Shown here: piece by piece, positions 1 to 15,592 of the stretch
Numbering within the stretch: position 1 is the stretch's first letter
Layout: every line of letters begins with the position of its first letter
Origin: a virus
Strand: one strand, 5' to 3'
Length of the DNA stretch: 64,000 nucleotides
IMG/VR virus record: IMGVR_UViG_3300032213_001988
Span: 67,519-131,518 of that record
Made by a program: the position numbers and the translations under genes
The notes under the pieces: model-generated
What the model was told of the DNA's origin: nothing
The model's database searches: none
What the model saw: the letters and a program-made list of their open reading frames with translations, nothing else

Positions 1-3000
1 GGCACGAGCAATAGGGAACCCAGGAACATTTACCTGGCAAACCGCTACTAGCTCAAGAGCACCCTTAATTGGGCGCCAGTCTCCTGAAGGAGCTGATGCG
101 CGAAGGGCACGGATTTGCTCCGGAGTTGCGCTAGGGCGTAGTGCTCCAGCAACCCAGATGCCATAAGCATCTTCTCCAGCGTGAACATCTGATACAGCAG
201 ATCCTGTGTCGTCATAGTGACGAGCAGCTGCTGCGGCGCTTGCCTCAAGTGATGCGTGACCACCGGCAAGTGTTAGTTGACCTACAGGAACATCGGTTCC
301 GTCGTCAGTGCGAACTACTCCTGTGTGGAAGTAGGCGTATTTGCTCTTTGAGCGTGGTGGCTTGGTTCCATATGCTAGGCCAATGTGATCTACATGCCAT
401 GCAGCAATGTGACCAAACACCTGACCTTCATCCGTAACTGTAAGTGGTGTTGCCTTCTTAAGTTCTGGATTTACAAACCAGCTCTTTGGTGGGGTGACGG
501 GGATTGCTCCAGCAACGAAACCGCATGCGACTAGCGACGCTGCTTCTGCCGGATCCACATCTTCCACATAGACTCCGTCAGGAATCACATCATCCTCCTG
601 TATCTCATTTTCTTCCTCAACGAGGAAAATCTTGCATTCTTGGAATGCAGGCTTAGGCACCATAGTAACTCCCATAACGCGTGCCTTAGTAATGTCCATT
701 TTACCATTACCAACTTTACCTGGCTTATCTTCTCCAGCCTTTAGTTCTTCTTCTTGTGCTTCAAACATATCCATGTCGGCTGAAACTCCACGGATAAAAC
801 CTTCGCGAACTAGACGTTCGGCTTCCTTACCATATTCACCAGTATCAAACACGCCCTTTGCGTTTCCAATACCTTGCTCAACGCGTTCCATAGTCTCAAT
901 GCGGCCTACGACTACAGAGCCCATGTGACCTTCGCCAGTCTTGATCTGCCACATCAAAGGAAGAGGTAGCTCGCGTAGGTTAATTGAATCTTTTCTAAAC
1001 TTGCGGCCATCGCCTGACTCAATTCCTTCAGGTATAACAAGAGGAATGGTAAACTTTGCGCCTGGTGTTTCGTGCCCTGTTGCAACTAGGCCCATACGAG
1101 ATCGAGCCTCATTTGCACGAGCAGATAGAGCTGCTTTTTCAATCATCTCTTCAGAGCTTACAACAACATCGGTGCTAAATGAGTTGCGGCCTTTTCCTTT
1201 TCTACCATAAAGTTGACGATGTTCCTTGTCGCCTGTCCACATTCCGGTCATTTCCTTATGACGGAGTGAGCAGTATCCTTTTGCGCGTGGACCCATGTAC
1301 TTTGAAAGTTGACGTACACAACGTGTCCAGTCGCCTCCAGTGTTCCAGCGAATCTTCATTCCACCCTTGCCAATAGTCCAATAACGACGTAAGGCTTCAG
1401 CGTTTCCACGATTACGGTCAAGGCCACCAGCTGCAGTTAACGTTGGCCCCCATAGAACAGTAAGAATGTGGTCTACATCTTCAGAGACGTAGATAGACGC
1501 TGTGACCGTGTTTGTGTCAATCTGTGTTAATACGTCCTGCAGCGTCTCGCTATCAAGAGGTACAACTGGCGGAGGTGTCGCCGAGTTAAGATCTGAGATG
1601 ATGCCTTCATCACGAACCCACTCTGCCTCAACTCGCTTGTAAGCCATTGGAAGATTTGATTTAGAGCTAGCAGGAACTAGTGCAATTAGATCCATCACAG
1701 CGCGAGGATCATCTGGAGAAACAAGAGCCATGAACAACGGCTGAACGTCAGAGTTATCCGGTGTTAGTTCAACAGCAGCGGCTGAGGACATCATTCCTGA
1801 TGCTCTAGTCACTGGCTGATACCAAAGACGATTTGGATAGGTAGTCTCACCAGTTTTCTTGTTTACAATTTTTTTATTTAACCACGACTTAAGAAGAGGG
1901 TGATCATACGCATCAAGAGTAAGCGTTTTGCCTGTCATCTTTAGGATGTCAGCGCCCTTAGTGCCAGAGATGTCAGGTGTACCAGCTCTATCAAGAGGAG
2001 TTGCACCTGCTGGAGCCTTGGTTGGAGTCTGCGTAGATGGTTTTGGCGCTCCTGGGACTGTTGTTCCTGGTTGCGCAGTAATAGAAGAGCCTGGAGCTAC
2101 TGGCGCAGGTGTATTTAACGGCTTAAACTGATCTCGTTGCGATTTAACCCAGGCTGGCCAGTTATTAACAATCTCCGACATGTCACTTGGGCGTAGCGCA
2201 GGTAAAGTTCCAGGGATTTGAACGTTTGGACGGTCAATCGGTGTACGTGGTTGCGCAAGTATCCCTGTAGTGTCAAAAGCAGGAGTGTCAACAGTCTCTC
2301 TTGAGATCGCGCCGATGTACTTGTCAACCTTTTCAGTTGATTGCGCTGGCACATCAGCGGTTGTTCCATTATCAAATTGAATCTTAACTGTATTAGCGTC
2401 AGGGTTAATCGCACGGATTGTTCCGACGCCATTTTGGACGTCACCTCCGACAACAACACGAGATCCTTGCGACGCAAACCGACCTGACGCATCACGAACT
2501 TGACGCGCTGCGTTCTTAGCGCGCTCCTCGGGTGAGTACTGGCCATCTCCTTCAGCAGGAGCTGCTACAGGAGCAGGTGCTGCTACCATTGCGCTGTCAA
2601 CATAATCCCAGTCGACTTCATTCATTGCACGTGCGACTAGGTGAGCCTCGTCGTAGTCAATGTCTTCAACAGAAACGTATCTGTCAGGGTTTTGCTGTAG
2701 TCGTGCTGAGATAATTATTGCAGAGTCTGGGTCAATTACAACGTGCGACTTCTCAACGTAGTCATCTACGTCATCAAGCTCACTGTCGTATAGATAAACA
2801 TCTCCGTTGTATAAGCCTAAGTCGTCCCAGCCTAAACCGTCCCAGACATAAACGCTGCTATCAAAATCAATCTTGTAAAGGCGGTCCATGCCGGTGCCGT
2901 CAAGTCGTACTCGAGCAAGAAACTCTGGTGCAGTCATTGCTGGCTTCTCTAGAGCTTCTTTAAATGCGTCTAAGTCAGAGGTGTAAAGACGCGGTGCGTC

Positions 3001-3597
3001 ATACTCGCTAATATCCTGTTGATGACCAGGAAGAATATAGCCATCAGCAGTTAGAGATTTTTTGTTTTCGCGTTCTACGATTGCTTGCGCCCATCGCCAT
3101 CCCGCGTCGCCGCCCCAGAGAGCCCACGCAATACGCCCACGAGAAGGAAAGCCCTTTTCACCTGGCTGGTATCCTTGCGCCTTCTTATCAATCTCATGAC
3201 GAGGAAAATACTTCGCAATATGACGGACCTTTTCGATCCCGATCTGCCCTCCCTTAGCAAGAGTGCGCGCGGTGTTGAGCCCAACTGGTGTACCTCCTCG
3301 CTTATGTTCTTTTCTCCATTCAATACCTTTTTTAGCTTCAACCTGAACTCCGCGAGGAATCGTGTACATACGTCCTGACGCAACGATAACCTTAATTTCT
3401 AGGTCTGCTAAAGCACCTTGTGCAAGATCAAACATTGCCTGAGGAATATCGTCAGAGCAAGGCGTCCAGCTGCTAGATGAAAACATCTGCTCTGCGTTAC
3501 CAGTCTCGATGACAAGGTTAACGTTCTTGTCTATTACGACAGCGTTATCTCCACTTTGGAATAAAACTAGTGAGTCATTAACTCCAAGTATATTCAC
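1..3597 (-). CDS. Multidomain capsid maturation (prohead) protease, >1199 aa, 3' end outside the window
   Basis: GTG at 3597. Frame translated by hand at several points and consistent with an open frame to the window edge. It is absent from the ORF track, presumably because there is no stop. HK97-like protease motifs GEGHMGSVVVGRI and RGVSADMD (about 700-1050). Actinophage protease C-domain GHIAAWHVDHIG...HYDDT...GIWVAGALRP...SGDWR...VNVPGFP. Also GNAEALRRYW and RIAWALWGGD modules. Confidence 0.85.
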   Translation of the reverse strand, partial: MNILGVNDSLVLFQSGDNAVVIDKNVNLVIETGNAEQMFSSSSWTPCSDDIPQAMFDLAQGALADLEIKVIVASGRMYTIPRGVQVEAKKGIEWRKEHKRGGTPVGLNTARTLAKGGQIGIEKVRHIAKYFPRHEIDKKAQGYQPGEKGFPSRGRIAWALWGGDAGWRWAQAIVERENKKSLTADGYILPGHQQDISEYDAPRLYTSDLDAFKEALEKPAMTAPEFLARVRLDGTGMDRLYKIDFDSSVYVWDGLGWDDLGLYNGDVYLYDSELDDVDDYVEKSHVVIDPDSAIIISARLQQNPDRYVSVEDIDYDEAHLVARAMNEVDWDYVDSAMVAAPAPVAAPAEGDGQYSPEERAKNAARQVRDASGRFASQGSRVVVGGDVQNGVGTIRAINPDANTVKIQFDNGTTADVPAQSTEKVDKYIGAISRETVDTPAFDTTGILAQPRTPIDRPNVQIPGTLPALRPSDMSEIVNNWPAWVKSQRDQFKPLNTPAPVAPGSSITAQPGTTVPGAPKPSTQTPTKAPAGATPLDRAGTPDISGTKGADILKMTGKTLTLDAYDHPLLKSWLNKKIVNKKTGETTYPNRLWYQPVTRASGMMSSAAAVELTPDNSDVQPLFMALVSPDDPRAVMDLIALVPASSKSNLPMAYKRVEAEWVRDEGIISDLNSATPPPVVPLDSETLQDVLTQIDTNTVTASIYVSEDVDHILTVLWGPTLTAAGGLDRNRGNAEALRRYWTIGKGGMKIRWNTGGDWTRCVRQLSKYMGPRAKGYCSLRHKEMTGMWTGDKEHRQLYGRKGKGRNSFSTDVVVSSEEMIEKAALSARANEARSRMGLVATGHETPGAKFTIPLVIPEGIESGDGRKFRKDSINLRELPLPLMWQIKTGEGHMGSVVVGRIETMERVEQGIGNAKGVFDTGEYGKEAERLVREGFIRGVSADMDMFEAQEEELKAGEDKPGKVGNGKMDITKARVMGVTMVPKPAFQECKIFLVEEENEIQEDDVIPDGVYVEDVDPAEAASLVACGFVAGAIPVTPPKSWFVNPELKKATPLTVTDEGQVFGHIAAWHVDHIGLAYGTKPPRSKSKYAYFHTGVVRTDDGTDVPVGQLTLAGGHASLEASAAAAARHYDDTGSAVSDVHAGEDAYGIWVAGALRPSATPEQIRALRASAPSGDWRPIKGALELVAVCQVNVPGFPIARA

Positions 3598-4656
3598 TTA
3601 CTCTTCCTCCGTAATAGGTCCACCAACAACCCACGCGTTACATGTACGAGATGCCGCACACTTGAAATCTAAAGCTTCGCAGTACCCAAGCTCTGCCGCG
3701 TCAACCGCGTCCCAGGCGTTATCACTTGAGGATCCACCTTGCTCAATACCAGTTGTAATACAGTCAAGCATCTTAGGAGTACGAATAAACATTACACAGT
3801 TTCCACATGTGCTCTTTCGTGCCTCGTCACCAGAGACTCCCCAGCGTGTTCCTTTATCGTCCCAGAACTCATCGTTTGGCTCGTTTGGATTTAGTGGGCC
3901 GTAGCCTGCGTTCTTAATTGCATATTCACGATTTTCAAGATTAACAACAATGTCCTGTGTTGCGGGAGGGCAGTCACCATCTGCAGCTGCAGTAATAGGC
4001 TCGGACTCTTCGTCCTCGTATTGCGCGGTGTCTTCCGTGGTAAGAGTTTCATCATTACCCTCAGCCATATCGTAGATTTTTATAAACTTAGGTGTTACCT
4101 CATGAACCTCTAGCCCGTCGATTGACTCGTCGTCTGCAGGTAGCTTAAACCATCCGCGATTTGAGCGGGTGTACATTCCAGCCTCTGATGAGTAGATTAA
4201 GTATTTAACCTCTTGAGACTCGGTGTCAACTGCTGCGTAAAGATTATCCTCTGGAGCAGGCGCGTTGGGAGTAAACGCTAGTTTTACATCTGCCATGTAC
4301 ATCTCCTCTAGTGCCTCAGCAGGGACGGTAGTCCGAAGGCTTGAAGCCCATCTACCATCTGTGTCTTGAAATGCTCGTACTGTATAAATCTTACCGTAAC
4401 TTGAGAAAGTTATGTCGCCTCTCGACTCATTTACACGCACATCTTCAGGCCGAACAAGTGGGTAGTAACGTATGCCGTCAATAGTTGAGGCTCCTGCGTG
4501 AGGCTTGTCGTCAATCATCTCGACGTGAACTCCGTAGACCGGTTGAAGCATGACCTGTCCATCTTCACCTTTAACTGTCATAACCGCAGGACCGGCTAGA
4601 AAGCCTTCATCAGTCTTCCACGCTGCCTCATCTGTAAACTTCAATTTATTTATCAC
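3598..4656 (-). CDS. Head-operon hypothetical protein with C-terminal Cys-rich module
   Basis: 352-aa ORF, GTGA overlap with the upstream gene. C-terminal CPPATQD...CGNC...GYC...FKCAASRTCNAW module. Confidence 0.8.
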   Translation of the reverse strand: MINKLKFTDEAAWKTDEGFLAGPAVMTVKGEDGQVMLQPVYGVHVEMIDDKPHAGASTIDGIRYYPLVRPEDVRVNESRGDITFSSYGKIYTVRAFQDTDGRWASSLRTTVPAEALEEMYMADVKLAFTPNAPAPEDNLYAAVDTESQEVKYLIYSSEAGMYTRSNRGWFKLPADDESIDGLEVHEVTPKFIKIYDMAEGNDETLTTEDTAQYEDEESEPITAAADGDCPPATQDIVVNLENREYAIKNAGYGPLNPNEPNDEFWDDKGTRWGVSGDEARKSTCGNCVMFIRTPKMLDCITTGIEQGGSSSDNAWDAVDAAELGYCEALDFKCAASRTCNAWVVGGPITEEE

Positions 4657-7600
4657 GACTTAGATGCTCCTGTTCCGGTAATGATAACCTCCTCGATAGG
4701 ACGTCCTCCGATGTAGTTAATTCCTCTAGCCTTTAGCCCCTCAATGACGCCCACATGAACTTCCTTTGAGACTACCATCACGTCAAGATCTTCCCAGGAG
4801 AGTCTTTGCTTAAACATAACCTCGTAGGCTCCAACCTGCGCAGCAGATATAACGTCCTTGTTCTTTGAGCGCTTGCCAAAGGCATCGGTGTAGTTTGCAT
4901 AGAAGTCTAAACGTTGATACACCTTCTTAGGGTCAAAGTATAGTGTAGGCACCCAGTCGGTAGTTCCGTATCTCTTTCTATCAGCACTTTTTACCGGGCG
5001 AGTAAACACGTAGTCAGCGCCACCAGTTCCAATATCAGCCGCGCTTGACTGACCGTTAACTCCAATTCCTTCTGTCCAGCGTGTTGTTGTTGAGAGAAGG
5101 CCTCCCTGTGGGTTATCAATGAATCCTACTATCCAGTCTGTCATTGCCTTTACTTTTTGCTCGTCACTCATGCTGTATTCAAGAACGCCAGGATTACGAA
5201 GGCCGTGACTCATAGCCTCTGGCTTGCCAGTTGCCTCCCAGATCTTTAACGCGCCTTCCTCAGAAAGGCGATATTCAATTCTTCCTGATGGGCCTGTCGT
5301 TACGATAACGTCGTCTACAGTTAGTCCCCACTTGTCCTTTACCTTTTCAAGACTTTCTGTTCTTGCCGCACCCTTAGGGTTTGTGTTCGCATCTGTCTTA
5401 GCATCAAAGATACTCATCAAGCGATTTTCAATAAGAACCTTTGCGTCTGCTGGTGTTGCAGGACGCACCTGACTTACTCCTGCTAGAGCTAGTGCGTTAG
5501 CAATCTGATCATCGGTGGCACCTGCTGGCGCTTGAATCTGCACCGTGTTGTGAAAGGCGCGAGCCGGAGCTCCACCGTATCCTTTTGAGAATGTGTCAGA
5601 CGCGTCTGGATTAGCACGATGAATATAGATAACAATTCCGTCCTTTGTAGTAATCTTATAAGTTCTTCCTGTTGGGCTTTCATAGGCTGTCTCAGATGCA
5701 GATAGATCTCCTACTCCGTCCTTGCCTACAGTTATTCTTGGAATACGTAGCTTACTGACTTCTATACCTGCGTCTGCTCTTTCCTGCTCAGTCATGCTTG
5801 CAATATCAGCGACTTTTCTCTTACCGGCCCAGTTCGTAAGCTTAAACTTTAGTTGAATGCCATCCACGCCTTCAGCGTTACGCACGTGCATAACTCGAAC
5901 ATCTAGGTCTTCAATTGAGTCTGCGTCAACAGCTGCAGACGCTCCACGCATTGCAGCTTTTTTGTCACCTGTGTCAAGAGCCTTTGCTATTGCGTCTGGA
6001 AGGGCAGGTACTGTCTCAAAGTTAGATAATGACCAGTCAGCTGGGCTGTCAACAATTACTGGCTCAGCGCCAGCGCCAGTTGCCTTTGTTGTAGACTTTT
6101 TAGTTGTAGGTCCCTTAAAGTTTTCATCGAGTGTATTTGTAGATTTTAGGGTCTTTCCTGAGCGCCACTTTACTACGCCATTTCCAAAGTCTACGAAGGC
6201 GTAGTTGTCCTTATTGACTTTTAGCACGGTACCAATTACGCCGTCCTTGTCTGCAACCTTTACTCCTGCAAAGATCTGATTACCAGTAGAATCAGCAATT
6301 GCTGTAAACCCATCAGGTACTTCAAGTTCATCAGTTGCGTCTACATCTTCTATAGGTTCTGACTCGGTACCGAAAGGCTCAGACTTGTTTTGAGCTATCT
6401 TTTCAAGCAGCGCATCATTTTCTTCCTTGGTTGGCTGACGCCACTGAAATACCTCAATGCCGTTTCCGCCAGGCTCAAAGAAATCAGGTTTAGAGTCAGG
6501 AGTGTAATTTGTCTTTTTCTTTGCATCAATGATGTATACAGTCTCGCCATCAGGGGTTGCAGCAATCATTCCGTCTTTCTCATGAACTGCAAGGATCTTT
6601 CCACCCTCTGGCATTCCGTATGAGAAAAGCTTAACTAGTTCGTTTGCTGCATCATTAAGAATAGGCTCGGTTGGGAAAGGAGTACTTGGAGATGGCTTGG
6701 TTGCTGCTGGCGTTACTTTTTCTCCAGCTGCAATTTCATCGCTAATATCAACTATGCCAGGAGCGACTATGTCGGTAATTGCTGAGATGACGTCTGCGTC
6801 TTCTGCCTCAGACCAGTCAACAAGACCTTCCTCATCTATAGCATCACGTATCTGATCTGCCTTTTCCTTAGAGATCTTAGTGCCTTGAGCGTCTAGTAGA
6901 TCTAGTATCATCTTTGAGTGAGCTTGGATTTTTTTATTATCGGTGTAGATGTCACCGTAGAACTCTTCAGGCACAAAGTCTTCATCAAGAACTGACTTGT
7001 ACTCTTTTGCAAAGTCGTCCATCTTGTCAAGTGGTACCTCTACTGTAATTTCATCAACGCCATCAACATCTAACTTAGAATCAACTACATACGGCAAAAC
7101 TTCTTCGTATCCAGCAGGTCCGTTACTATTAGGATTAAAAGGACGAGTCCCGTCGTGAACAAACGACACGCGAACTTTCTTACCATCTTCAGTTAGTTGC
7201 GCAGTTGGTTCAAACTGACCAATGTCATCTTGCGGAGTTTCTGGTGTTGGCGCTTCTGGAGCTTCTGGCTCGGGAGCGTCCGGAGCCTCAGGGGCTTTTG
7301 GGCCTTCGCCACCACCGCCATCGCCATCAATAACTGTTAGATACTTAGTGCTAAACACCTTGGGTTTGCCACCATCTGACATCTTAACCCAGACGTAGCC
7401 TGAGTTCTTGTCGTAGCGTGAGAGTACTCCTTCAAGAACCTCACCCTTCTTCTCATAGCGAATTTTTGCGCCTGGCTCAATAGGCGTTCCATTTTTATCC
7501 TTATAAGGATTTGTCACAGACTCAGTTGCGACTGGCTCTGGCGCTTCAGCAGGCGCTGTTGGCTCTGGCGCTGCAGGAGTGCTCTTATCATTATCTTCTT

Positions 7601-10600
7601 CAATGTAGTCTTTTAGAACGCGTAGTTGCTCATCAATATCATCTACGTTATTCATTAGACCAATATCATCTTTATCCCAGTCATAGGTGTCAAGCATACC
7701 GCGTAGCTCTTCAAGAACTCCTGGTAGCTCTTCATCAGAGATCTCGCCGTTACGCCAGTCAACTAACGCAGTGTCGATTTGATCTGCAACTGCTTGGAAC
7801 GCCTTTCGGTATACTGCAAGTTGTTTTTCGTCATCAGCGTACTCTTGTGCCCAACCACCAGCAGTATCAAGTGCGCTGTCAATCTCTGCTTTCTTTCCTT
7901 CGGGAGTTTGAACTGCCTCTGGGTCTGTGTCCTGCTCTTTGCTAATATCTGCGTTGTCAACTACAATAGATGTGTCCTCACTAAGGAGGTCGTATCTATC
8001 AAGAATAAACTGGCGACGAGCCTTTAGCTTATCCTTTATCTCTTGCGCTGCTTCTGTGTCTGTGACAATTCCATCAACCATTGAGTCAATGTCATCGTTT
8101 GATATGTCAAGAAGCTTGCGGGCTGACTCCTTCTGTTGCTCATCGGTCATTGAACCAAATACAGCAGCAGACTGTGGATTCATGCTAGGGTCACGCAGCG
8201 TGTCTAGTTCATTGACATCATTGCCAAACAAGGATCCCTTAGGTTTACCCATAGCGCGGAACAAAAGCGCTCCACCTGGGTCCACACGGACTGGATTACC
8301 ACTGCCATCGGACATTACGTTATCAAATCCTAAACCTGCAACGTCCCAGTTTCCAAGCCACGCATCAACTGCAAAGCCTTCCTGCAACTTAGCAAGATAC
8401 TCTGGGTTGTTTAATTGTTCCTGTAGATCTTGTTTTGATCCAATAATGTCTGGAGAGAACGTCATCTTAACTCCGTCATCTCCACTGCCAATTCCAATGT
8501 CCGCTGCATCAACTTTTAGAAGTTTATAGAACGCGGCAGCAAGAACTTCGTTCTGTGCGTGCAACTCTGACTTAGGCTTCTTTACATAGAAGCGATTTCC
8601 TTCAGCGTCTTCGTAGAAGCCACCTTCATTAGAACCAAGCTGTGGGCCAACCTTCTTCCAGCCTTCCATGTCGTACTCTGTTGAAAGTTCTTCAACTATG
8701 GAGTTAACTGGGTTGTCTACACTTTGTTCTACAGGCTCGGCTTCTTCATCAGACGCCTGTGCCTCTGGGTCTGCGTTTGCAATATCATCAAGCAACGCAT
8801 TTGTGTCAACACCTTGAATCTGCAAAGCATCACGAATAAGTTCTACGGCAACAGTGACTTCTTTCTCGTCTTCCCACTCAAGAACAACCTCGCCTGAACC
8901 ATCTTCAATTGCTTGTCTAAATGATTCAGCGAGAACGTCACGGTCGTAGCTGCGTGCAACAGCATCGGGCTTGTCTTCAAAATCGTCAGGGAAATCCTGT
9001 TCTGCTCTTGATTCGTATCGAGCAGGGTCAATCTTGTGGTAGCCTTCTGGCATCTCTGGAGATGCGTTATCCTTTATCAAAAGTTCATTGTATGAAGTGT
9101 CAAGTCCTTCGAGTACGGCATCGCGCTTTGACAGCATTTCAATTTCAACCTTAAAGACTTTTCTACCACTTGAGGTAGTTGTCTCTTTAACTTCTACTAT
9201 CTTAAAGTTTCCTAGCATTCTGTGCTCTTGCTCGTTAAAGGTAGATATCGTTGTTAGGTCAACTGATCTTCCTTTGTTAGGCTTTACTGTGAAGACGATT
9301 GATGTCTTATCAGTCGAATTAGAAAGCGCGCCTGCAAAGATCGAGGCGTTAATATCACTCGTTGAGAACGAACGCGCATCAAATGCTAAAACGTCACCAT
9401 TCTTAATTTTTTCTATAAGAGGGCTGTCGTTTGGCACCTGTAGGCCTCGGTGCAATGACACCTGGTTGTATCGAGAGGACTCAGTCATAAGTCTAAAGAA
9501 AGCGCCTGCAAATGATGTGTCGCTGTCAATAGATTCTCTTCCATCGATTAAAGCCTGCTTTGACTTAATAAGATCATTTATGCTTCCATTTTTGTCAAAG
9601 AACTCTTTTACCTCTGACCACTCAGCAGAGCCGTTGTACTTTTTAATTGCAGCGTAGACGCCGTTGGCTAGTCTAGTCCTTTCAACGCCATCACTAATTC
9701 CCTCATCAAGAGCAGTGATAGTTGCCCACAGAGCTTGGAATGCTTGCTTCTCTTCAGGAGTAGCGTCTGGGTTGAGCGCACCTCCGATATAGTCATCTAG
9801 TAATTTTTCAAGATCCTCTGAGATAGCAGAGTCGTTGTCATTTACAGGATTTCCCTTTGCTTTTCTAATTACATCTGCAAGTTCTACAATCTTAGGGTTT
9901 GGCTCGCCGTTTCTGTTGAGCTCCATTAGCTGTGATACAAGTGCAGATCCTGAGTCTGCAAGCGCAACATCAACGTTTGCTCTTGCGATAGCCTCTGCGT
10001 CCTCTGGGTCAATCGCGTCAAGCAATGGCGTTTCAGCTTGAACGTTCTCCTCCTTGCGAAGAGACTTAAGAAGGTCTTGGTTCTTGCTCTCGCCTAAGCC
10101 CGCGTCGTAGAGTTGCGCGAGTAAAAGGTCAGCGTCGTATCCTTGCTTCTTAAGCGCAAGATAGATTGCCTCTACTGGAACCCACTCTTCACCGTTATTA
10201 AAATCAAGAGCGCCAACACCTAGACCAACAGGTTTAGCTACTGGCTTCTTTTTCTTAGGGCCAGGCTTTCCTGGTTTCTTTTCAATAGGATCACCGTTGT
10301 CATCAACTTCTTCGTCGTCGCCATCATCCTCAAGGAGATCTAGCGCGTAATCTTTCTTACCAACGATACCTTGGATAAAACCGTCAACAAGCGCATCGGT
10401 TCCAAACTTGTTTGCAATAACTTCTGGATCATCTGAGAAGTCAGGACTCATCTCATCGTCAACGCGACCTTCAGGCTCAAATGCCTCAGGAGCTTTTAAC
10501 TTCCACGCACCTTCAGGAGGCGTAAGCTTTGAGATAACAGATGTTTCAGGTTCAGCAGCTGGAGCTGAGGGAGCTTCAGGGAGTTTTGCGATAACTTCGT

Positions 10601-12278
10601 CGTCTCCTGGACGAGGAAAGGCGATAGTTTCTTTCCACCAAGGATTTGCTGGGTCATGCAGTAAACTTTCGTGGTCACCAACCCAGTTAACAACATCTGG
10701 GATCTTTGCTTCAGCTTCTTCCCAGGTGTCATAGCCTAGAGCGTTTCCATCCTTGTTAAACCAAGAAGCGCGATGACCAAAATTGATCTGTCCTTTGCTG
10801 TTAACCTCAGCAATTATTTGAACTTGATTTTTTCCGTCTGCACTTGGAACAAGCTTTTGGAATGATCTAATCTCAGGAGCTCCGTCAACTGAATACTTGC
10901 TGATTGCAAGTTCCCAGCCGGCAGGAATGTCGCGGCCTTCAATGTCCTTGCCTTGTTCAAGCATAGCTTCAAACTTGTCAACTTCCTCGTTGTGCTTTAA
11001 TCTTTTTTCTTTAAAGAAAGCGTCATCGGCTGCTTTTTTGTCTTCCTGCACCTTAAGGATTTCTTTTGAGGATTCTGGCATCTTGTCATAAGGATCAACC
11101 TCAGAACCTGGAAGAACATCTGCATTTTGTGGCGCAGACATGATGCGCTTAAACTTGTCGTAGTCTTTTTCATCTGCGTTAGCAAGATCCTGTACCTGTG
11201 CCCAGTCATCAACTTGCTCGCCAACCTGTGCGCCCTTGTCACCGTTCTTGTCCTTGCGGAACAGTGTAAGCTTTCCATCAGACTCTTCTACAATGTAGTC
11301 GTCGTCAGAACCAAATGAACCATCTTCATTTTTCTTCCAGCCGAAAGGTGCGTCCATACGCATCTTAATCATGTCTTCCTTAGAGAAGATCTGCGCTCTC
11401 TTATCAAAGATAGACGAAAGCTTTCCTGTAAGTTTTCCAGCAACACTGTCTGGCAGAAGTGCCTTATACTCCTGAGCGTTACTTGACTCTACTGGGTAAA
11501 TACCGTCTGGTAGATTTGCGTCACCCTTAACTTGAACGAGTCCACGCTTACCATCAACACCAATAAACTTTCCATTGATAGGAACGTTGTTCCCACCGAT
11601 GTTAATCTTGAAGCCGATACCACGACCCATTTCAATCCAGCGACCTAAACGGTCACGCCATTGTAGATTTGCACGTGCGCTACGAGCAGCAGATGAATTG
11701 CCGGAGCCAAAGCTAAATGCAGCAGTAAGAGCTGATAGATAGATCTCGCGAGGAACTCCTCCTGCGACAAGAACTTGTAGAGATGCAATTGCATGTGAGT
11801 ACTCTGTTGAACTTCTGTCATAGAAGTATGCTGCTGCGACAATCTCTCTTGCTTCATCGTCAACACGTGGGTCTGCTGCGATCCAACGAGAACGAGCGTG
11901 ACGCAACGCTGAGGCAGTCATCGAGTTAGCGCGAGATGCTAAAGGGTGTCCTACTGGAAGTAGATCTCTATATGATACCTGTGAGTCAGTAGATATCTCT
12001 CCGGTGCATGCAAGACTAATAAAGGATGAAACTTCCTTATAGGCAACAAACTGACGAGTCTTTGTCTCTAGGCTTGCTGTCTTTGCCAGCGAGCGCTCTG
12101 CAACTAAAAAGACAGCCTGTTGAGAAACGCGACGCTCTGCAGGTACCTTTGCGTTTTCAGCTGCTGCAAGGTTGCGTAGCGACTGGCGAAATGACGTCTT
12201 GCTTCCACGAACGTTTGCCTTAGGAACAACCTTAGCCTTTTCTCTGTGTGAGATAAGTTCGTTAATTAGCTCGTACAT
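4653..12278 (-). CDS. 2541-aa multidomain protein: VIP2-like ADP-ribosyltransferase, PI3/4K/HipA-like kinase and C-terminal HYE-like ART; probable internal virion protein
   Basis: R-S-E motifs LHRGL / FSTS / NEQE (about 9150-9560). Kinase motifs YVKK, NEVLA, DAWLGNWD, DN, RVDPGG (about 8000-8680). C-terminal SHGL/GGLLS/DYVF/YEVMF. Lies between portal and protease. Confidence 0.8.
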   Translation of the reverse strand: MYELINELISHREKAKVVPKANVRGSKTSFRQSLRNLAAAENAKVPAERRVSQQAVFLVAERSLAKTASLETKTRQFVAYKEVSSFISLACTGEISTDSQVSYRDLLPVGHPLASRANSMTASALRHARSRWIAADPRVDDEAREIVAAAYFYDRSSTEYSHAIASLQVLVAGGVPREIYLSALTAAFSFGSGNSSAARSARANLQWRDRLGRWIEMGRGIGFKINIGGNNVPINGKFIGVDGKRGLVQVKGDANLPDGIYPVESSNAQEYKALLPDSVAGKLTGKLSSIFDKRAQIFSKEDMIKMRMDAPFGWKKNEDGSFGSDDDYIVEESDGKLTLFRKDKNGDKGAQVGEQVDDWAQVQDLANADEKDYDKFKRIMSAPQNADVLPGSEVDPYDKMPESSKEILKVQEDKKAADDAFFKEKRLKHNEEVDKFEAMLEQGKDIEGRDIPAGWELAISKYSVDGAPEIRSFQKLVPSADGKNQVQIIAEVNSKGQINFGHRASWFNKDGNALGYDTWEEAEAKIPDVVNWVGDHESLLHDPANPWWKETIAFPRPGDDEVIAKLPEAPSAPAAEPETSVISKLTPPEGAWKLKAPEAFEPEGRVDDEMSPDFSDDPEVIANKFGTDALVDGFIQGIVGKKDYALDLLEDDGDDEEVDDNGDPIEKKPGKPGPKKKKPVAKPVGLGVGALDFNNGEEWVPVEAIYLALKKQGYDADLLLAQLYDAGLGESKNQDLLKSLRKEENVQAETPLLDAIDPEDAEAIARANVDVALADSGSALVSQLMELNRNGEPNPKIVELADVIRKAKGNPVNDNDSAISEDLEKLLDDYIGGALNPDATPEEKQAFQALWATITALDEGISDGVERTRLANGVYAAIKKYNGSAEWSEVKEFFDKNGSINDLIKSKQALIDGRESIDSDTSFAGAFFRLMTESSRYNQVSLHRGLQVPNDSPLIEKIKNGDVLAFDARSFSTSDINASIFAGALSNSTDKTSIVFTVKPNKGRSVDLTTISTFNEQEHRMLGNFKIVEVKETTTSSGRKVFKVEIEMLSKRDAVLEGLDTSYNELLIKDNASPEMPEGYHKIDPARYESRAEQDFPDDFEDKPDAVARSYDRDVLAESFRQAIEDGSGEVVLEWEDEKEVTVAVELIRDALQIQGVDTNALLDDIANADPEAQASDEEAEPVEQSVDNPVNSIVEELSTEYDMEGWKKVGPQLGSNEGGFYEDAEGNRFYVKKPKSELHAQNEVLAAAFYKLLKVDAADIGIGSGDDGVKMTFSPDIIGSKQDLQEQLNNPEYLAKLQEGFAVDAWLGNWDVAGLGFDNVMSDGSGNPVRVDPGGALLFRAMGKPKGSLFGNDVNELDTLRDPSMNPQSAAVFGSMTDEQQKESARKLLDISNDDIDSMVDGIVTDTEAAQEIKDKLKARRQFILDRYDLLSEDTSIVVDNADISKEQDTDPEAVQTPEGKKAEIDSALDTAGGWAQEYADDEKQLAVYRKAFQAVADQIDTALVDWRNGEISDEELPGVLEELRGMLDTYDWDKDDIGLMNNVDDIDEQLRVLKDYIEEDNDKSTPAAPEPTAPAEAPEPVATESVTNPYKDKNGTPIEPGAKIRYEKKGEVLEGVLSRYDKNSGYVWVKMSDGGKPKVFSTKYLTVIDGDGGGGEGPKAPEAPDAPEPEAPEAPTPETPQDDIGQFEPTAQLTEDGKKVRVSFVHDGTRPFNPNSNGPAGYEEVLPYVVDSKLDVDGVDEITVEVPLDKMDDFAKEYKSVLDEDFVPEEFYGDIYTDNKKIQAHSKMILDLLDAQGTKISKEKADQIRDAIDEEGLVDWSEAEDADVISAITDIVAPGIVDISDEIAAGEKVTPAATKPSPSTPFPTEPILNDAANELVKLFSYGMPEGGKILAVHEKDGMIAATPDGETVYIIDAKKKTNYTPDSKPDFFEPGGNGIEVFQWRQPTKEENDALLEKIAQNKSEPFGTESEPIEDVDATDELEVPDGFTAIADSTGNQIFAGVKVADKDGVIGTVLKVNKDNYAFVDFGNGVVKWRSGKTLKSTNTLDENFKGPTTKKSTTKATGAGAEPVIVDSPADWSLSNFETVPALPDAIAKALDTGDKKAAMRGASAAVDADSIEDLDVRVMHVRNAEGVDGIQLKFKLTNWAGKRKVADIASMTEQERADAGIEVSKLRIPRITVGKDGVGDLSASETAYESPTGRTYKITTKDGIVIYIHRANPDASDTFSKGYGGAPARAFHNTVQIQAPAGATDDQIANALALAGVSQVRPATPADAKVLIENRLMSIFDAKTDANTNPKGAARTESLEKVKDKWGLTVDDVIVTTGPSGRIEYRLSEEGALKIWEATGKPEAMSHGLRNPGVLEYSMSDEQKVKAMTDWIVGFIDNPQGGLLSTTTRWTEGIGVNGQSSAADIGTGGADYVFTRPVKSADRKRYGTTDWVPTLYFDPKKVYQRLDFYANYTDAFGKRSKNKDVISAAQVGAYEVMFKQRLSWEDLDVMVVSKEVHVGVIEGLKARGINYIGGRPIEEVIITGTGASKS

Positions 12279-13370
12279 TTACTCGGTCTCCTTAACTGGC
12301 AAAAGGTCTGCGTCTTTTGACCCATAGAGAGCAGACGCAAGAACTGCTGCTCGATCAAATGGAGACTCGTTGTCACGTATGGCACGTAGCCAGGTTGCGC
12401 GTAGCGCTGGAACAATTTCATAACCTTGACCAGATAGCTCAGCCATCGCAAGTATGGCGTGCTCTGGTGAGTGATAATCTTCTTCATTCTGTAGTTCAAC
12501 GTATAGCTCTTGGCTAGCATAGAGTGATGCAATGATTGAGGCATCACCTTTACTTGAGCGTGGATGCTTTGCTGGCAAAAGATCATTGTCCTGCTTGTAG
12601 TTTGGATTTGCAGGACGCCCACTCTTTAATAAACGTAGGAACGCATTAACGCGAGCAAACGCCCAGCCGTCTCTTGTCATCCCTGGTCTGTGCGAGCTTG
12701 AGAACGCACCGGCGCCGCGACGATACACAGCCTTTAACATTCCAAGAGTTGCCTTACGACCTTCAGGCGCTTTCTCGTTGTGCTTCTTTACCTTCTCACG
12801 AAGAGTTGCCTCTGTTCGAGCGCTAAATACAATTTTCTTTCCACCCTTAGCAGATCCCTTAGGATTTTTCTTTGAGCCGTAGATGCGATCTTTCTTTGGA
12901 GCAGGGCGAGATCCGGCAGCGGTAATCTGACTGTCTTCAACTTGAACAACACCATCAGGGATAACTGCAAAACGGCACTTGCCATCATCTTCAATTGGCT
13001 GTGCAATAATCTTACAAACGCCAGGGCCTTCATACAAAACGCAGTTGATGCACTTAACACCAATTTCCTTGTATTCGTTTTCTGCGGCAGGCGTGTACCC
13101 TGCCCAGATTCCTGTGCGGTCCTCGTTAAACTTTCCGTGCTTTTCAGCAATTTCTAAGAGTGCCTGAGCAAGGTCTTGCTCTTCAGCAACAATAATCCCT
13201 GCAGCTGTAAGCGAGTCTGCAAAATCCTTTGGCACACAGTTGGGAACCATGTTCCCGTTCTTGCCCTTCTTCATACCGACTTGCTTATACCCGTCCCAGC
13301 AAGGACTCTTACCGGCAGCAGTAATAGCTGCTTCTTCTTCGTCTAAGAGAGTAACCCAGTCTTGTGCCAT
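12279..13370 (-). CDS. Modular head-operon protein (PCWDGY..VPNCVP module, HiPIP-like Cys module, basic HNE..KAVYRRG module)
   Basis: Start re-called to ATG 13370 (MAQDW), just after the Dps stop. Three modules are each preceded by (I/L)TAAG. Confidence 0.75.
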   Translation of the reverse strand: MAQDWVTLLDEEEAAITAAGKSPCWDGYKQVGMKKGKNGNMVPNCVPKDFADSLTAAGIIVAEEQDLAQALLEIAEKHGKFNEDRTGIWAGYTPAAENEYKEIGVKCINCVLYEGPGVCKIIAQPIEDDGKCRFAVIPDGVVQVEDSQITAAGSRPAPKKDRIYGSKKNPKGSAKGGKKIVFSARTEATLREKVKKHNEKAPEGRKATLGMLKAVYRRGAGAFSSSHRPGMTRDGWAFARVNAFLRLLKSGRPANPNYKQDNDLLPAKHPRSSKGDASIIASLYASQELYVELQNEEDYHSPEHAILAMAELSGQGYEIVPALRATWLRAIRDNESPFDRAAVLASALYGSKDADLLPVKETE

Positions 13371-13372
13371 GT

Positions 13373-13846
13373 TTAGAAACCGTAGTCTGATTTTTCTTCT
13401 GGTGTAAGGAATGCGTTTAACTGCCAACGCCACTTCTTGTGCATGTCAATACGACCACCGATGAAGTCAATAAGCCCTTGCTCGTTACTAGCATCTGCAA
13501 TATCAAAGGTCATGTTAAGAGACGCCAGCAAGATGTCATTTGCATCGTAAAGGTCCTTACACATTGCCATAGCGTTTTGTCCAACCTGCGCATCTTGAAT
13601 ATCTGCCGAACGAGCAAACTCAACAAGACGGTAAGGAGACGGAGAACCTAGCTTGAGAATCTCTTCTGCTGTAGGGTCAATAGCGCTATAGATGTCTTCA
13701 TAGATCTCGGCAAAGAAGTCATGAAACTGAGCAAAGTCACTACCAACAACATTCCAGTGATGTCCTTGAGCCTTAAAGTACATAACAACTTCGTTACCTA
13801 GCAGCTTCTTCAGCGCTTCAACGAGTTGTGGATTTTCTATGGCCAT
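13373..13846 (-). CDS. dps: Dps/ferritin-like protein
   Basis: HHWNVVGSDFAQFHDFFAEIYED...DPTAEEI Dps signature with ferroxidase His/Asp/Glu residues; 157 aa. Confidence 0.9.
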   Translation of the reverse strand: MAIENPQLVEALKKLLGNEVVMYFKAQGHHWNVVGSDFAQFHDFFAEIYEDIYSAIDPTAEEILKLGSPSPYRLVEFARSADIQDAQVGQNAMAMCKDLYDANDILLASLNMTFDIADASNEQGLIDFIGGRIDMHKKWRWQLNAFLTPEEKSDYGF

Positions 13847-15592
13847 TTACTGTGCTCCTTCTTCCGTTGCTGGAGGCGGTGCTCCATTGCCTTGTGGGCC
13901 AGTTGGCGTCTCTGTCTCCGCTGCTTCTGCTGCAATCTGCTGTGGTCCCTTAAGAAGTCGTTCAACCTCTGGCGGAATTGGTGCAAGTGATGTTGCCTGT
14001 GATGCAAGACGAGTTGCCTTCATAACGTCAGGAGCAACTGCTGCAAGCATTGCCTCTGTGAGCTCAGGTGTGATTGCACCCTTCTCTCTAAGCAGACGTA
14101 GTGCAACCTCCGTAGGAGTTGGACCGTCCTGTTCTGTAAATCCGTGTGATCTGCGCCATGCATCTCCAGAGATAACTCCCCGGTCAAATCCAGCATCTGC
14201 GTCGGCGGCGCGGTCATTACGCGTAGCCACCTGTGATGGGTCATACCATACGCAGATGCGTTCTACCTGTGCTGGGTCGAACCCATTTGCAATCAGGTAA
14301 GGACGCAGATAAACAACTGTAATAGCGTCTGCAATCAGAAGCATTAACGGTTCGATATGTGCTTTGTATAGTGACTCATCAATTTGAAGAGCATTGGAAT
14401 ACTTAACGTTTGCAAGACCTGTAACGATGTCCTTTGGAACATCAAGGCCTTGTAAAATTCTTTCTAGAACACGATCTGCGCGTTGTGCAAGTGCTGGGTC
14501 AAATGAACGCTCAAACTTGAATTGTTTAATCTTGTCGCCAAGTTCTGCTGGACCACGAATAATAAGTGGAACAACCGCAGACGCTGAATCCTCATCACGA
14601 ATAGGCGTTGTCATCGCATCCATAAGTTGATCCTCGAACTCGTCAGCCGCCTCCTCAGGAGTGTAGGCTTGATTCATTGAGTCATCATCATCATACGGAT
14701 AATCAGGATCTGGTGAACCTGCAACAGAAAGTCCGTCCGGAAGATACAAGGCGCCAGCATTTAGACGTGAGCGCGCTGTAGCACGGAACGTTCTGTTGAG
14801 GAGAAGTAGTTCTGAGCAAAGATCTAACAAGCCACGTAGGCTCGAGTCTGCTTCATCGGAGTAGCGTGGGTGCGCTCGCCAGATGCGACCGATAAACGCA
14901 TTGTTTGGAAGTATAATTTGACCAGGTTGTTTTTGTCCCGTGTAGGAACCTGTTTCACGTCGAGGAATAATTGTGTAGGCACCCTTTTGGTCAATCTGAA
15001 TCTCATCGACTGAACGGATATCCCATGTCTCAGGAAGACCTTGTCCTATGCGCTCTGGAATTTGAACAAGGTAGCACTCGCCAGCTACTGCAAGGTTGAG
15101 TGCTGCATCGCGAAGAAGACCAGCCTGACCGCCGTATGCTGAGTCAAGACGCACGATTGCGCGCTCTGCCGCTGAGGCAAGACGCTCATCGATGAGAGGA
15201 CTGTTTCGAACTGGAAGTGGAGGCTCTGCAGGATTGTCAATTACTGCTGCAAAGATACGAATACGAGATATTACCGAGCCAACTAGACTGAAGGCGTATT
15301 TAATTTCACCAATTGCATCATAGTATTCCCACGCCTCAGACTGCCAGGCGTTTGATCCTGATGTTCTGCGGCTACGGAATTGCTCGGCCTCACCTTTGTC
15401 ATTAAGACGAAGTTGAGATGCTGCTGCGGTAAGTCCACGAGGAGCTGAGTACGCAACTGGCGATGCAAAACCTGGAATGGTTGCTATCGAGCTAAGGGAA
15501 AGAGCAGGCGAGTTGATTGCACGACGAGTAGCTGCAGCCGACCTAGGGCGCTGTGATCTGTTGCCGCTTGAATCGCGACTAAATACTGCCAC
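13847..15592 (-). CDS. Portal protein
   Basis: 581 aa downstream of TerL. AWEYYDAIGEIKYA...SRIRIFAA and RLNAGALYLP motifs typical of actinophage portals. Confidence 0.85.
   Translation of the reverse strand: MAVFSRDSSGNRSQRPRSAAATRRAINSPALSLSSIATIPGFASPVAYSAPRGLTAAASQLRLNDKGEAEQFRSRRTSGSNAWQSEAWEYYDAIGEIKYAFSLVGSVISRIRIFAAVIDNPAEPPLPVRNSPLIDERLASAAERAIVRLDSAYGGQAGLLRDAALNLAVAGECYLVQIPERIGQGLPETWDIRSVDEIQIDQKGAYTIIPRRETGSYTGQKQPGQIILPNNAFIGRIWRAHPRYSDEADSSLRGLLDLCSELLLLNRTFRATARSRLNAGALYLPDGLSVAGSPDPDYPYDDDDSMNQAYTPEEAADEFEDQLMDAMTTPIRDEDSASAVVPLIIRGPAELGDKIKQFKFERSFDPALAQRADRVLERILQGLDVPKDIVTGLANVKYSNALQIDESLYKAHIEPLMLLIADAITVVYLRPYLIANGFDPAQVERICVWYDPSQVATRNDRAADADAGFDRGVISGDAWRRSHGFTEQDGPTPTEVALRLLREKGAITPELTEAMLAAVAPDVMKATRLASQATSLAPIPPEVERLLKGPQQIAAEAAETETPTGPQGNGAPPPATEEGAQ

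Follow-up and report, generated by a model that had tools for sequence, protein, structure and literature searches.

A giant phage head-operon protein with a predicted atypical kinase and two putative ADP-ribosyltransferases

Phage proteins that are injected with the DNA act ahead of phage gene expression. To our knowledge, they are almost unstudied, save for T4 Alt and a few others. Polyvalent proteins, described in phages and conjugative elements by Iyer, Burroughs, Anand, de Souza and Aravind in 2017, combine 2-15 distinct effector domains in one polypeptide and are predicted to be delivered in a manner coupled to the DNA (PMC5512222). Virion delivery is predicted for such effector proteins (PMC5512222, PMC9503650). 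[quoted passage not shown]

The protein discussed here has 2541 amino acids (aa). It is encoded in a window of 64,000 nt, the whole stretch of DNA that was analysed, which covers positions 67,519 to 131,518 of the virus record IMGVR_UViG_3300032213_001988. The complete record is 131.5 kb long and has terminal repeats.

The giant gene and its non-enzymatic modules

An earlier note on this DNA had placed a giant head-operon protein between portal and protease. The assignment holds in both respects, since the reading frame is uninterrupted over 2541 aa, with the portal gene on one side, and the genes for a 1615-aa protease-like protein and the major head protein on the other. The gene order is terminase, portal, Dps-like protein, DUF5824 protein, the 2541-aa gene, a 352-aa protein, the protease-like protein and the major head protein. 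Related contigs and phage DSL-LC01 have an identical operon order around the giant gene, and in many distant relatives the gene strictly keeps its place directly behind the portal gene. The sequence motifs that had been quoted are all found in place (LHRGL at aa 942, FSTS at 971, NEQE at 1015, VKKP at 1232, GNWD at 1309, FDNV at 1318 and DPGG at 1333), and the translation directly shows the acidic, Pro-rich linkers. Pfam, PHROG, NCBIfam, PADLOC and PDB-sequence models do not recognize any part of the protein. Besides three enzyme domains, it contains at least four additional conserved modules. The gene and its non-enzymatic parts are as follows:

4653..12278, (-): whole ORF P0001, a single intact frame of 2541 aa; giant polyvalent-type protein
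10599..12278, (-): module at the N-terminus (aa 1-560), conserved, its core at about aa 20-380
11718..11921, (-): [LIVM][TV]A[AS] motifs starting at aa 120, 146 and 184, all three conserved; candidate prohead-protease sites
10179..10601, (-): low-complexity linker rich in acidic residues, Pro and Lys, aa ~560-700, read from the translation
8697..9068, (-): spacer module (aa 1071-1194), conserved, which recurs among relatives as a BLAST block of its own
6282..7943, (-): middle region (aa 1446-1999), variable, containing Pro/Glu/Ala linkers
7329-7505, (-): putative SH3-like barrel, aa ~1592-1650
6108..6281, (-): SH3/KOW/Tudor-like beta-barrel, aa 2000-2057 (AF2 model mfe36abca44b6, residues 1-58)
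5262..6011, (-): conserved alpha/beta domain, aa ~2090-2339, with a confident AF2 model

The N-terminal module forms the N-terminus of most relatives and is possibly a capsid-targeting or anchor region. Searches of Pfam, PHROG, NCBIfam, PADLOC and the ESM Atlas with this module gave no match, and its alignment by hhalign to a PF06152 (MuF-type Phage_min_cap2) domain is weak (E 0.28). With the Pfam models, neither MuF (PF04233, PF06152) nor another known capsid-targeting domain was detected in the 2541-aa protein. The [LIVM][TV]A[AS] motif is enriched in the head-operon proteins (12 observed, 2.4 expected); the remainder of the window has 8, with 6.3 expected. Most relatives retain MTAS at about aa 118-120, even where the identity has fallen to about 30%. 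In the giant protein the motif is confined to aa 120-187 and absent between the enzyme domains, so that cleavage would remove at most an N-terminal propeptide, and would not cut the enzymes apart. The idea of a protease-processed cassette is thus weakly supported by the N-terminal motifs, and finds no counterpart in the linkers between the enzymes.

The linker at aa ~560-700 is an insertion breakpoint among relatives, according to a BLAST block map, and the variable middle region is replaced or deleted in some of them. A family search with the spacer module gave no match. Two SH3-like barrels had been proposed. For the one at nt 6140-6300, the model matches KOW, Tudor and ribosomal eL14-type barrels (Z 7.7-6, about 7.5 for the fold match), and the barrel is confirmed. 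The other, at nt 7330-7500, is putative, and has a weak in-register alignment to the first. Invariant residues of the alpha/beta domain include D2118, E2123, N2244, E2284, N2285 and R2306. The fold-search lists for the model that spans this domain are filled by the barrel, and contain no match for the alpha/beta domain itself.

Three predicted enzyme domains

The three enzyme domains and their catalytic codons are located as follows:

9069..9626, (-): divergent R-S-E ADP-ribosyltransferase (ART) module, aa 885-1070, assigned by its conserved triad and profile comparisons
9447-9449, 9363-9365, 9231-9233 and 9225-9227, (-): codons of R944, S972, E1016 and E1018 of the first ART
7944..8696, (-): atypical protein-kinase-like domain of the CtkA/HipA/PI4K branch, aa 1195-1445, assigned by AF2 and fold search
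8580-8582, 8343-8345, 8319-8321 and 8280-8282, (-): codons of K1233, D1312, N1320 and D1333 of the kinase
4656..5261, (-): C-terminal DarT-like H-Y-E ART domain, aa 2340-2541
5205-5207, 5010-5012 and 4821-4823, (-): codons of H2358, Y2423 and E2486 of the second ART

For the kinase, AF2 gives a confident model, with a pLDDT of 89.5 and a pTM of 0.88. A Foldseek search with the model finds CtkA (E 1e-6), and VIA-align superimposes 212 aa on CtkA with a Z of 16.8 and an rmsd of 3.4, followed by CotH (Z 14.7), PI4KIIα (13.4) and HipA (12.0). The ATP-binding Lys (K1233), the helix-C Glu (E1244), the catalytic Asp and Asn (D1312, N1320) and the metal-binding Asp (D1333) are all present, and together with D1305 they are invariant across 56 relatives of the kinase module. 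As far as the model goes, a bilobal atypical kinase fold of aa 1195-1445 is thus confirmed, and the PI3/4K-HipA-like kinase that the earlier note had read from the letters stands up to the fold comparison. The HipA_C and PI3_PI4_kinase models of Pfam do not match the protein; their only signal is a sub-threshold HipA_C match (E 7e-4) in one relative (L105). The domain shares the atypical kinase fold (Z 16.8-12) and the key residues with CtkA of Helicobacter pylori, the HipA/HipT toxin kinases, PI4KIIα and CotH, but the sequence identity is just 10-16%. Moreover, the phage kinase differs from them by an unusual catalytic loop (DAWLGNWD-x6-DN), by a D-x-G-G equivalent of the DFG motif (DPGG in the 2541-aa protein), and by being one module within giant phage proteins.

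The first ART has the Arg, Ser-x-Ser and Glu-x-Glu motifs in the R-S-E order. R944, E1016 and E1018 are invariant in all 46 relatives compared, and position 972 is Ser or Thr in 43 of them, which bears out the VIP2/C2-type triad proposed before. In an hhalign comparison with PF03496 segments the motifs are in register (E 0.07), and the language-model neighbours in the ESM Atlas are PF03496 clusters (score 0.96). Two of ten short, distant profile matches (P0114 and P0135) carry PF01129 over the same residues. The Pfam ART models do not match the module at E values up to 5, and a profile search of PDB sequences recovered no ART. Taken together, the motifs and profile comparisons support the assignment of aa 885-1070 as a putative divergent R-S-E ART.

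DarT is the DNA ADP-ribosyltransferase toxin of DarTG. The model of the C-terminal region resembles DarT1 (8baq, Z 6.8 over 156 aa) and the DarT structures 7omu, 7yk3 and 7omv (Z 6.4, 6.0 and 5.9), values that are middling on the scale of the tool and were obtained with a multi-domain query model. These four DarT entries are the only large-domain fold matches. Foldseek adds 7omx with a probability of 0.94. H2358, Y2423 and E2486 are invariant in 43 sequences and occupy strand positions in the model. When the domain is compared by hhalign with 12 DarTs of PF14487 (E 1.6e-4, probability 50%), E2486 aligns with the Glu of the DarT 'AE' motif. The DarT family models (Pfam PF14487 and PADLOC) have no match in the 2541-aa protein. 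The suggestion of a C-terminal ART-like domain is thus sustained at moderate strength, and the model points to a DarT-like ART at aa 2340-2541. The domain resembles DarT in its putative ART fold, in the invariant H, Y and E, and in the aligned catalytic-motif Glu. Unlike DarT of DarTG, it is encoded by a phage and not as part of a host defence system, and it is always preceded by the conserved ~250-aa domain without a fold match.

In each of the three enzymes the catalytic residues are under purifying selection, and since they are invariant or nearly so among relatives, the motifs are not chance matches. This bears on the possibility that the protein is mainly structural, as an internal head, scaffold or ejection-conduit component in which the enzyme-like domains are relics or non-catalytic binding modules. 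The very large size, the conserved non-enzymatic domains in the N-terminal and middle C-terminal parts, and the location of the gene at the usual site of minor capsid or scaffold genes would fit such a role. Nevertheless, we consider it very improbable, because the invariance of the catalytic residues in relatives down to about 30% identity argues for retained catalysis.

Mosaic relatives and proposed function

Metagenomes contain 66 giant mosaic relatives of the 2541-aa protein, which swap in PF03496 ARTs, an RNase T exonuclease, NUDIX, a UvrD helicase, ArdC and an ATLF peptidase. Such domain swapping is a signature of polyvalent proteins (PMC5512222). The kinase module recurs with an ART: of 82 distinct complete ORFs that bear the kinase, those of cultured phages included, 54 have a VIP2-like or DarT-like ART at their C-terminal end. 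The kinase family is thus habitually paired with C-terminal ARTs, which are of two different clades. In the literature on polyvalent and MuF-VIP2 proteins we found no description of this recurrent dyad. The kinase module also occurs in two fusions with delivery domains: in a Virgisporangium genome its partner is a MuF-type Phage_min_cap2 head protein, and in Nonomuraea it is a WXG100-like secretion domain. Relatives of the kinase in cultured Gordonia, Pseudomonas, Yersinia and Aeromonas phages are annotated as 'hypothetical' or only as 'ADP-ribosyltransferase'. This large and widespread atypical kinase family is invisible to all curated family libraries, and the cultured relatives make the packaging and enzyme predictions directly testable.

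The protein is probably a polyvalent effector, a late head-operon polypeptide with several host-directed enzymes that is packaged and injected with the DNA. The R-S-E ART, the CtkA/HipA/PI4K-type kinase and the DarT-like ART would be strung between the conserved N- and C-terminal modules, and set apart by SH3-like barrels and flexible acidic, Pro-rich linkers. The protein would enter the prohead, perhaps by means of its N-terminal ~120-190 aa, which the prohead protease may trim, and would leave the capsid together with the DNA. Once inside a new host cell, its R-S-E ART would use NAD+ to modify host proteins, like T4 Alt, and its kinase would phosphorylate host proteins in the manner of HipA, CtkA and the T7 kinase; the DarT-like ART would modify nucleic acid or another host target. 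Host functions or defences could thus be shut down ahead of any phage gene expression. It counts against injection that a polypeptide of ~270 kDa would have to pass the portal and tail unfolded, of which we know no demonstration for such proteins.

Alternatively, the protein could be made late with the head proteins and remain unpackaged, with a cytoplasmic role in the producing cell, such as the modification of host or phage proteins during assembly or a late shut-off of defences; the operon position would then reflect timing only. The lack of a recognisable capsid-targeting or MuF domain would be in line with this, as would the kinase-ART protein of Pseudomonas phage Jeremy, which is found among non-structural genes. 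Such a role appears unlikely, since it does not explain the conserved modules that frame the protein at both ends, the strict conservation of the post-portal slot, or the fusion of the same kinase-ART module to a MuF-type minor capsid protein.

Less likely still is a packaged protein whose targets are the DNA or virion of the phage itself, with the DarT-like ART shielding phage DNA from restriction, or the kinase modifying capsid or ejection proteins. DarT enzymes modify DNA (LeRoux 2022, as cited in PMC9503650), the protein would share the capsid with the DNA, and the same operon encodes a Dps-like DNA-binding protein. However, R-S-E ARTs, like HipA/CtkA-type kinases, are known to modify proteins, and in a bacterium the kinase-ART module follows a WXG100-like secretion domain, which suggests that it acts on another cell.

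It is tempting to go further. The kinase and its C-terminal VIP2-like or DarT-like ART might be an obligate, mechanistically coupled effector unit that has spread among head proteins of phages, polyvalent giants and toxins secreted by bacteria, with the DarT-like version hitting host nucleic acid at entry. We offer this rather doubtful proposal tentatively. If it were true, the kinase could prime or lock the target of the ART, or phosphorylate the ADP-ribose adduct, and the DarT-like version would turn a known anti-phage weapon on the host. A phage-borne DarT-like enzyme, if confirmed, would mirror the DarTG defence of bacteria.

Comparison with polyvalent and MuF-VIP2 proteins

As in polyvalent proteins, many effector domains, here three enzymes, are combined in a single giant polypeptide, the gene adjoins portal and terminase genes of a phage, and domains are shuffled between relatives that share hub domains and bear ARTs, kinases, NUDIX, helicases and ArdC. 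Whereas the kinase family of polyvalent proteins is a Ser/Thr/Tyr kinase that lacks the C-terminal subdomain, the kinase here is CtkA/HipA/PI4K-like and has a helical C-lobe. In further contrast, the 2541-aa protein has both an R-S-E and a DarT-like H-Y-E ART, and MPTase, ArdC and MuF domains were not detected in it. With T4 Alt and MuF-VIP2 proteins (PMC9503650, PMC7302621) it shares an R-S-E ART whose gene lies among head genes and which is expected to be carried inside the capsid. Here, however, the R-S-E ART is missed by PF03496, lies in the middle of the protein rather than at the C-terminus, and shares the polypeptide with a kinase and a second ART, but not with a detectable MuF domain.

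The earlier note had seen a candidate for an undescribed system. As a category the system is not new, since polyvalent multi-enzyme proteins (PMC5512222), MuF-VIP2 fusions and giant virion-associated proteins (PMC7302621) are already known. The 2541-aa protein is predicted to be a variant of the polyvalent proteins, which are thought to be packed into the capsid and injected. What differs from the described proteins is the particular set of domains and the pairing of the kinase with an ART.

The giant gene and its surroundings

The giant gene, window:4653-12278(-), is a single unbroken ORF of 2541 codons. It belongs to a virus record of 131,518 bp with direct terminal repeats, which is graded complete and of which the window is the right-hand half. 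No megablast match was found among cultured phages. Judged by the portal, the nearest cultured or named relatives are Actinomycetia phage DSL-LC01 (metagenome-assembled, 74%), followed by large Microbacterium, Arthrobacter and Gordonia phages.

Gene order around the giant gene (window positions unless a locus is named)
16832-18229 (-), large terminase, first in minus-strand order
13847-15592 (-), portal, after the large terminase
13373-13846 (-), Dps/ferritin-like gene (PF00210, E 2e-17), immediately following the portal
12279-13433 (-), DUF5824 protein, 384 aa, directly before the giant ORF
after the giant ORF and before the 1615-aa protein (-), 352-aa protein
L098:11269-16116, continuing window 1-3597 (-), 1615-aa protein, after the 352-aa protein
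after the 1615-aa protein (-), major head protein, then major tail and tape-measure genes

The giant protein had been placed between portal and protease, and this position is borne out by an intact ORF that is preceded by the portal and followed by the 1615-aa protein, whose matches are confined to aa 850-1270 and involve PHROGs that carry the label portal, head maturation protease or virion structural protein. The gene order listed above is also found around distant relatives. DSL-LC01 has the same gene order, with a counterpart of 3289 aa that is annotated as 'hypothetical protein'.

The Dps/ferritin-like gene occupies the same slot in six loci (L089, L091, L092, L093, L094 and L097), and is sometimes fused (373-385 aa protein). 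In the relatives, the DUF5824 protein is always the upstream neighbour of the giant gene. In one of them it has a faint HiPIP match, and a nearby gene of DSL-LC01 is annotated as a high-potential iron-sulfur protein.

A word-seeded search identified 66 giant relatives of 1400-4400 aa, all metagenomic. The module borders were drawn from a BLAST block map against these relatives.

Modules of the giant protein (all encoded on the minus strand)
aa 1-560, N-terminal module, core ~20-380
after the N-terminal module, low-complexity linker
aa 560-1062, block with the first ART-like region at its end
aa 1071-1194, spacer module
aa 1203-1431, kinase-like module, the most widely shared of all modules
aa 1446-1999, variable middle
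aa 2000-2541, C-terminal module, the last module in nearly all relatives

The acidic, Pro-rich linkers described earlier are plainly visible in the translation. For the N-terminal module, the ESM Atlas gave no usable match, and hhalign against a MuF-type domain gave an E of 0.28. Pfam-detectable domains that are swapped or inserted in the relatives include VIP2-type ARTs (PF03496), a PF01129 ART, RNase T exonuclease, NUDIX, UvrD helicase, ArdC, 2H phosphoesterase and an anthrax-LF-like peptidase. Domain mosaics of this type have been termed 'polyvalent proteins' (Iyer et al. 2017, PMC5512222).

The kinase and the two probable ADP-ribosyltransferase domains

Pfam searches with the whole giant protein and with ten 300-aa tiles returned only noise, PHROGs gave no match to the whole protein, and NCBIfam and PADLOC gave none to its separate modules. 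Against PDB sequences, neither phmmer with the whole protein nor a profile search, whether for the kinase, the full-length family or the first ART, gave a significant match; the sole weak lead was LepB (E 0.19, kinase profile). Since no curated library detects any domain, the domain calls of the earlier note, made from sequence alone, needed other tests. A JGI relative that is 93% identical, P0003, is named 'ribosomal protein L35AE/L33A', which may be a mis-annotation.

The kinase module was aligned with 55 relatives from viral contigs at 26-96% identity. Invariant in this alignment are K1233, E1244, the DAWLGNWD loop (D1305 to D1312), N1320 and D1333-x-G-G. The AF2 model, which is confident (pLDDT 89.5, pTM 0.88), was matched by Foldseek to Helicobacter CtkA (E 1e-6), HipT, actin-fragmin kinase, LepB and PI3Ks. 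VIA-align, an aligner independent of Foldseek, gave Z scores that all lie well over the stated background of the tool.

VIA-align matches of the kinase model
CtkA, Z 16.8 (212 aa aligned, rmsd 3.4)
CotH, Z 14.7
PI4KIIα, Z 13.4
MavQ, Z 12.5
HipA, Z 12.0
actin-fragmin kinase, Z 11.5

The predicted fold and the active site both identify aa 1195-1445 as an atypical kinase, and the original description as 'PI3/4K-HipA-like' was right in both respects.

In the first ART (aa 885-1070), R944, E1016 and E1018 are kept by all of 46 relatives, 43 of which have S or T at the position of S972. The R-S-E pattern is kept in a cleaner alignment of 16 sequences with identity down to 27%. In the language-model atlas (ESM Atlas), the neighbours of this region are PF03496 clusters (score 0.96, 187 shared features), the best 10 being one family. 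The profile had 323 matches at E < 1e-3 among 1.84 billion representatives, and PF01129 (NAD:arginine ART) lies over exactly the matched residues in two of ten short distant profile matches. A profile found no ART among PDB sequences. When three relatives with ARTs that Pfam recognises were used for a small profile-profile comparison, R, S and ExE were in register, but only at E 0.07. The Pfam-recognised ARTs of the relatives were rejected as counterparts of the first ART; they are located at other positions. With the motif invariance, the PF03496 neighbours and the PF01129 overlaps in favour of the R-S-E ART that had been claimed, aa 885-1070 are likely an ADP-ribosyltransferase.

The AF2 model of the C-terminal module is also confident (42 relatives in the alignment, pLDDT 86.9) and has three parts. 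The first, aa 2000-2057 (window 6108-6281(-)), is an SH3/KOW/Tudor-like barrel (Z 7.7-6), as had been proposed for nt 6140-6300. The second, aa ~2090-2339, is a well-modelled alpha/beta domain with no match among those listed, the lists being saturated by the barrel; in a second VIA-align comparison of the C-terminal model, the list was once more occupied by the small barrel. The third, aa 2340-2541, matched four different DarT structures and, apart from these, no large domain.

VIA-align matches of aa 2340-2541
E. coli DarT1, Z 6.8 (156 aa, rmsd 4.4)
Thermosipho DarTG, Z 6.4
M. tuberculosis DarT, Z 6.0
Thermus DarT, Z 5.9

Foldseek with the C-terminal model found 7omx (probability 0.94); against viral predicted structures it returned only uncharacterised proteins, none at E <= 0.001. 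H2358, Y2423 and E2486 are invariant (43/43 sequences), and the model places them at one strand end and two other strand starts, as expected for an H-Y-E ART. Compared by hhalign with 12 genes for true DarTs (PF14487), taken from genomes of actinobacteria, the C-terminal family gave a match (E 1.6e-4, probability 50%) that put Y-V-F opposite the 'fVfsD' strand of DarT and E2486 opposite its 'AE' glutamate. The fold matches, the invariant H-Y-E residues and the hhalign result support the C-terminal ART-like domain that was originally suspected, and point to a probable DarT-like ART, short of membership of DarT proper.

Two further segments, aa ~1592-1650 (window 7329-7505(-)) and aa ~207-265 (window 11484-11660(-)), give a weak, in-register alignment to the confirmed barrel, and are plausible barrels. 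The latter starts with RDxxGRW, a motif that appears to mark the start of an SH3-like barrel. All three segments share a D-x-x-G-x-x-I-x-x-G lead-in; the fold is confirmed by a model for aa 2000-2057 only.

Kinase-ART pairing and the candidate cleavage motif

Every kinase-bearing open frame in the collected viral and bacterial loci (L013-L111) was scanned with crude HMMs, which represented the kinase, the first ART, the VIP2-like ARTs and the DarT-like domain. An ART closes 54 of the 82 distinct frames whose 3' end is complete (34 VIP2-like, 20 DarT-like); its median distance from the kinase is 173 or 410 residues, and it lies within 5-24 residues of the C-terminus. In the other 28 frames no ART was detected. 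In one viral relative (L014:1925-5767), the kinase module occurs twice in tandem, followed by a VIP2-like ART.

In bacterial copies, the kinase-ART unit can stand behind delivery domains, either MuF-type Phage_min_cap2 (Virgisporangium) or WXG100-like plus NUDIX (Nonomuraea), as seen in loci L103:4630-7326 and L099:3550-7317. These fusions therefore suggest one effector unit on two delivery systems. Other bacterial copies have NUDIX, 2H or WGR domains ahead. The module is also present in cultured phages (L112:3099-6740 and L113:6683-12215). In Pseudomonas phage Jeremy, it lies inside a 1213-aa protein annotated 'ADP-ribosyltransferase' (XTK87773). Gordonia phage Mareelih has the kinase protein (gp77) directly behind the portal, with a separate 'ADP-ribosyltransferase' (gp79) after it. 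Microbacterium phage Pumpernickel (gp82/gp84) is a further cultured relative. The kinase has gone unrecognised in cultured phages because the annotations read only 'ADP-ribosyltransferase' or 'hypothetical'.

The candidate cleavage motif [LIVM][TV]A[AS] is about five-fold enriched in the head-operon proteins (window 1-15592 and L098:9117-16116), with 12 copies observed and 2.4 expected from composition; the other 40 ORFs of the window have 8 copies, with 6.3 expected. In the major head protein, it occurs at aa 202 and 243, near the start (aa 164) of the major-head-protein family match. The 1615-aa protein, the second giant of the head operon, has six copies, together with two of RDxxG[RK]F. 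In the giant protein, all three copies are within aa 120-187, and an MTAS site at aa ~118-120 is retained by most relatives. The earlier note had envisaged a protease-processed cassette. With the motif limited to this region, separation of the enzymes by the prohead protease is unsupported; should the motif serve as a protease site, only an N-terminal segment would be lost, and the enzymes would remain on one chain.

Comparison with polyvalent proteins

A giant head-operon protein with several enzymes that is co-delivered with the DNA corresponds to the polyvalent-protein concept (PMC5512222), which has been widened to ARTs generally (PMC9503650). Microbacterium phages have MuF-VIP2 fusions, and a protein of >4,400 aa described as 'likely processed, and virion associated' (PMC7302621). 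By analogy, we infer that the giant protein may be delivered with the phage DNA. The original interpretation is supported in part: its domain calls are supported, but the proposed 'undescribed system' is not, since both the polyvalent concept and MuF-VIP2 fusions were already described.

The kinase-ART pairing is not mentioned in the surveys of polyvalent proteins and ARTs consulted for this comparison, and a literature search found no paper on it. Set beside the polyvalent proteins, the giant protein has a divergent R-S-E ART, and its relatives have several PF03496 domains. The polyvalent kinase of 2017 lacks a C-lobe (PMC5512222), whereas the kinase described here is CtkA/HipA-like. In contrast to previously described polyvalent proteins, the conserved C-terminal unit appears to be DarT-like. 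The main interest lies in a widespread, unrecognised kinase family that is habitually paired with ARTs.
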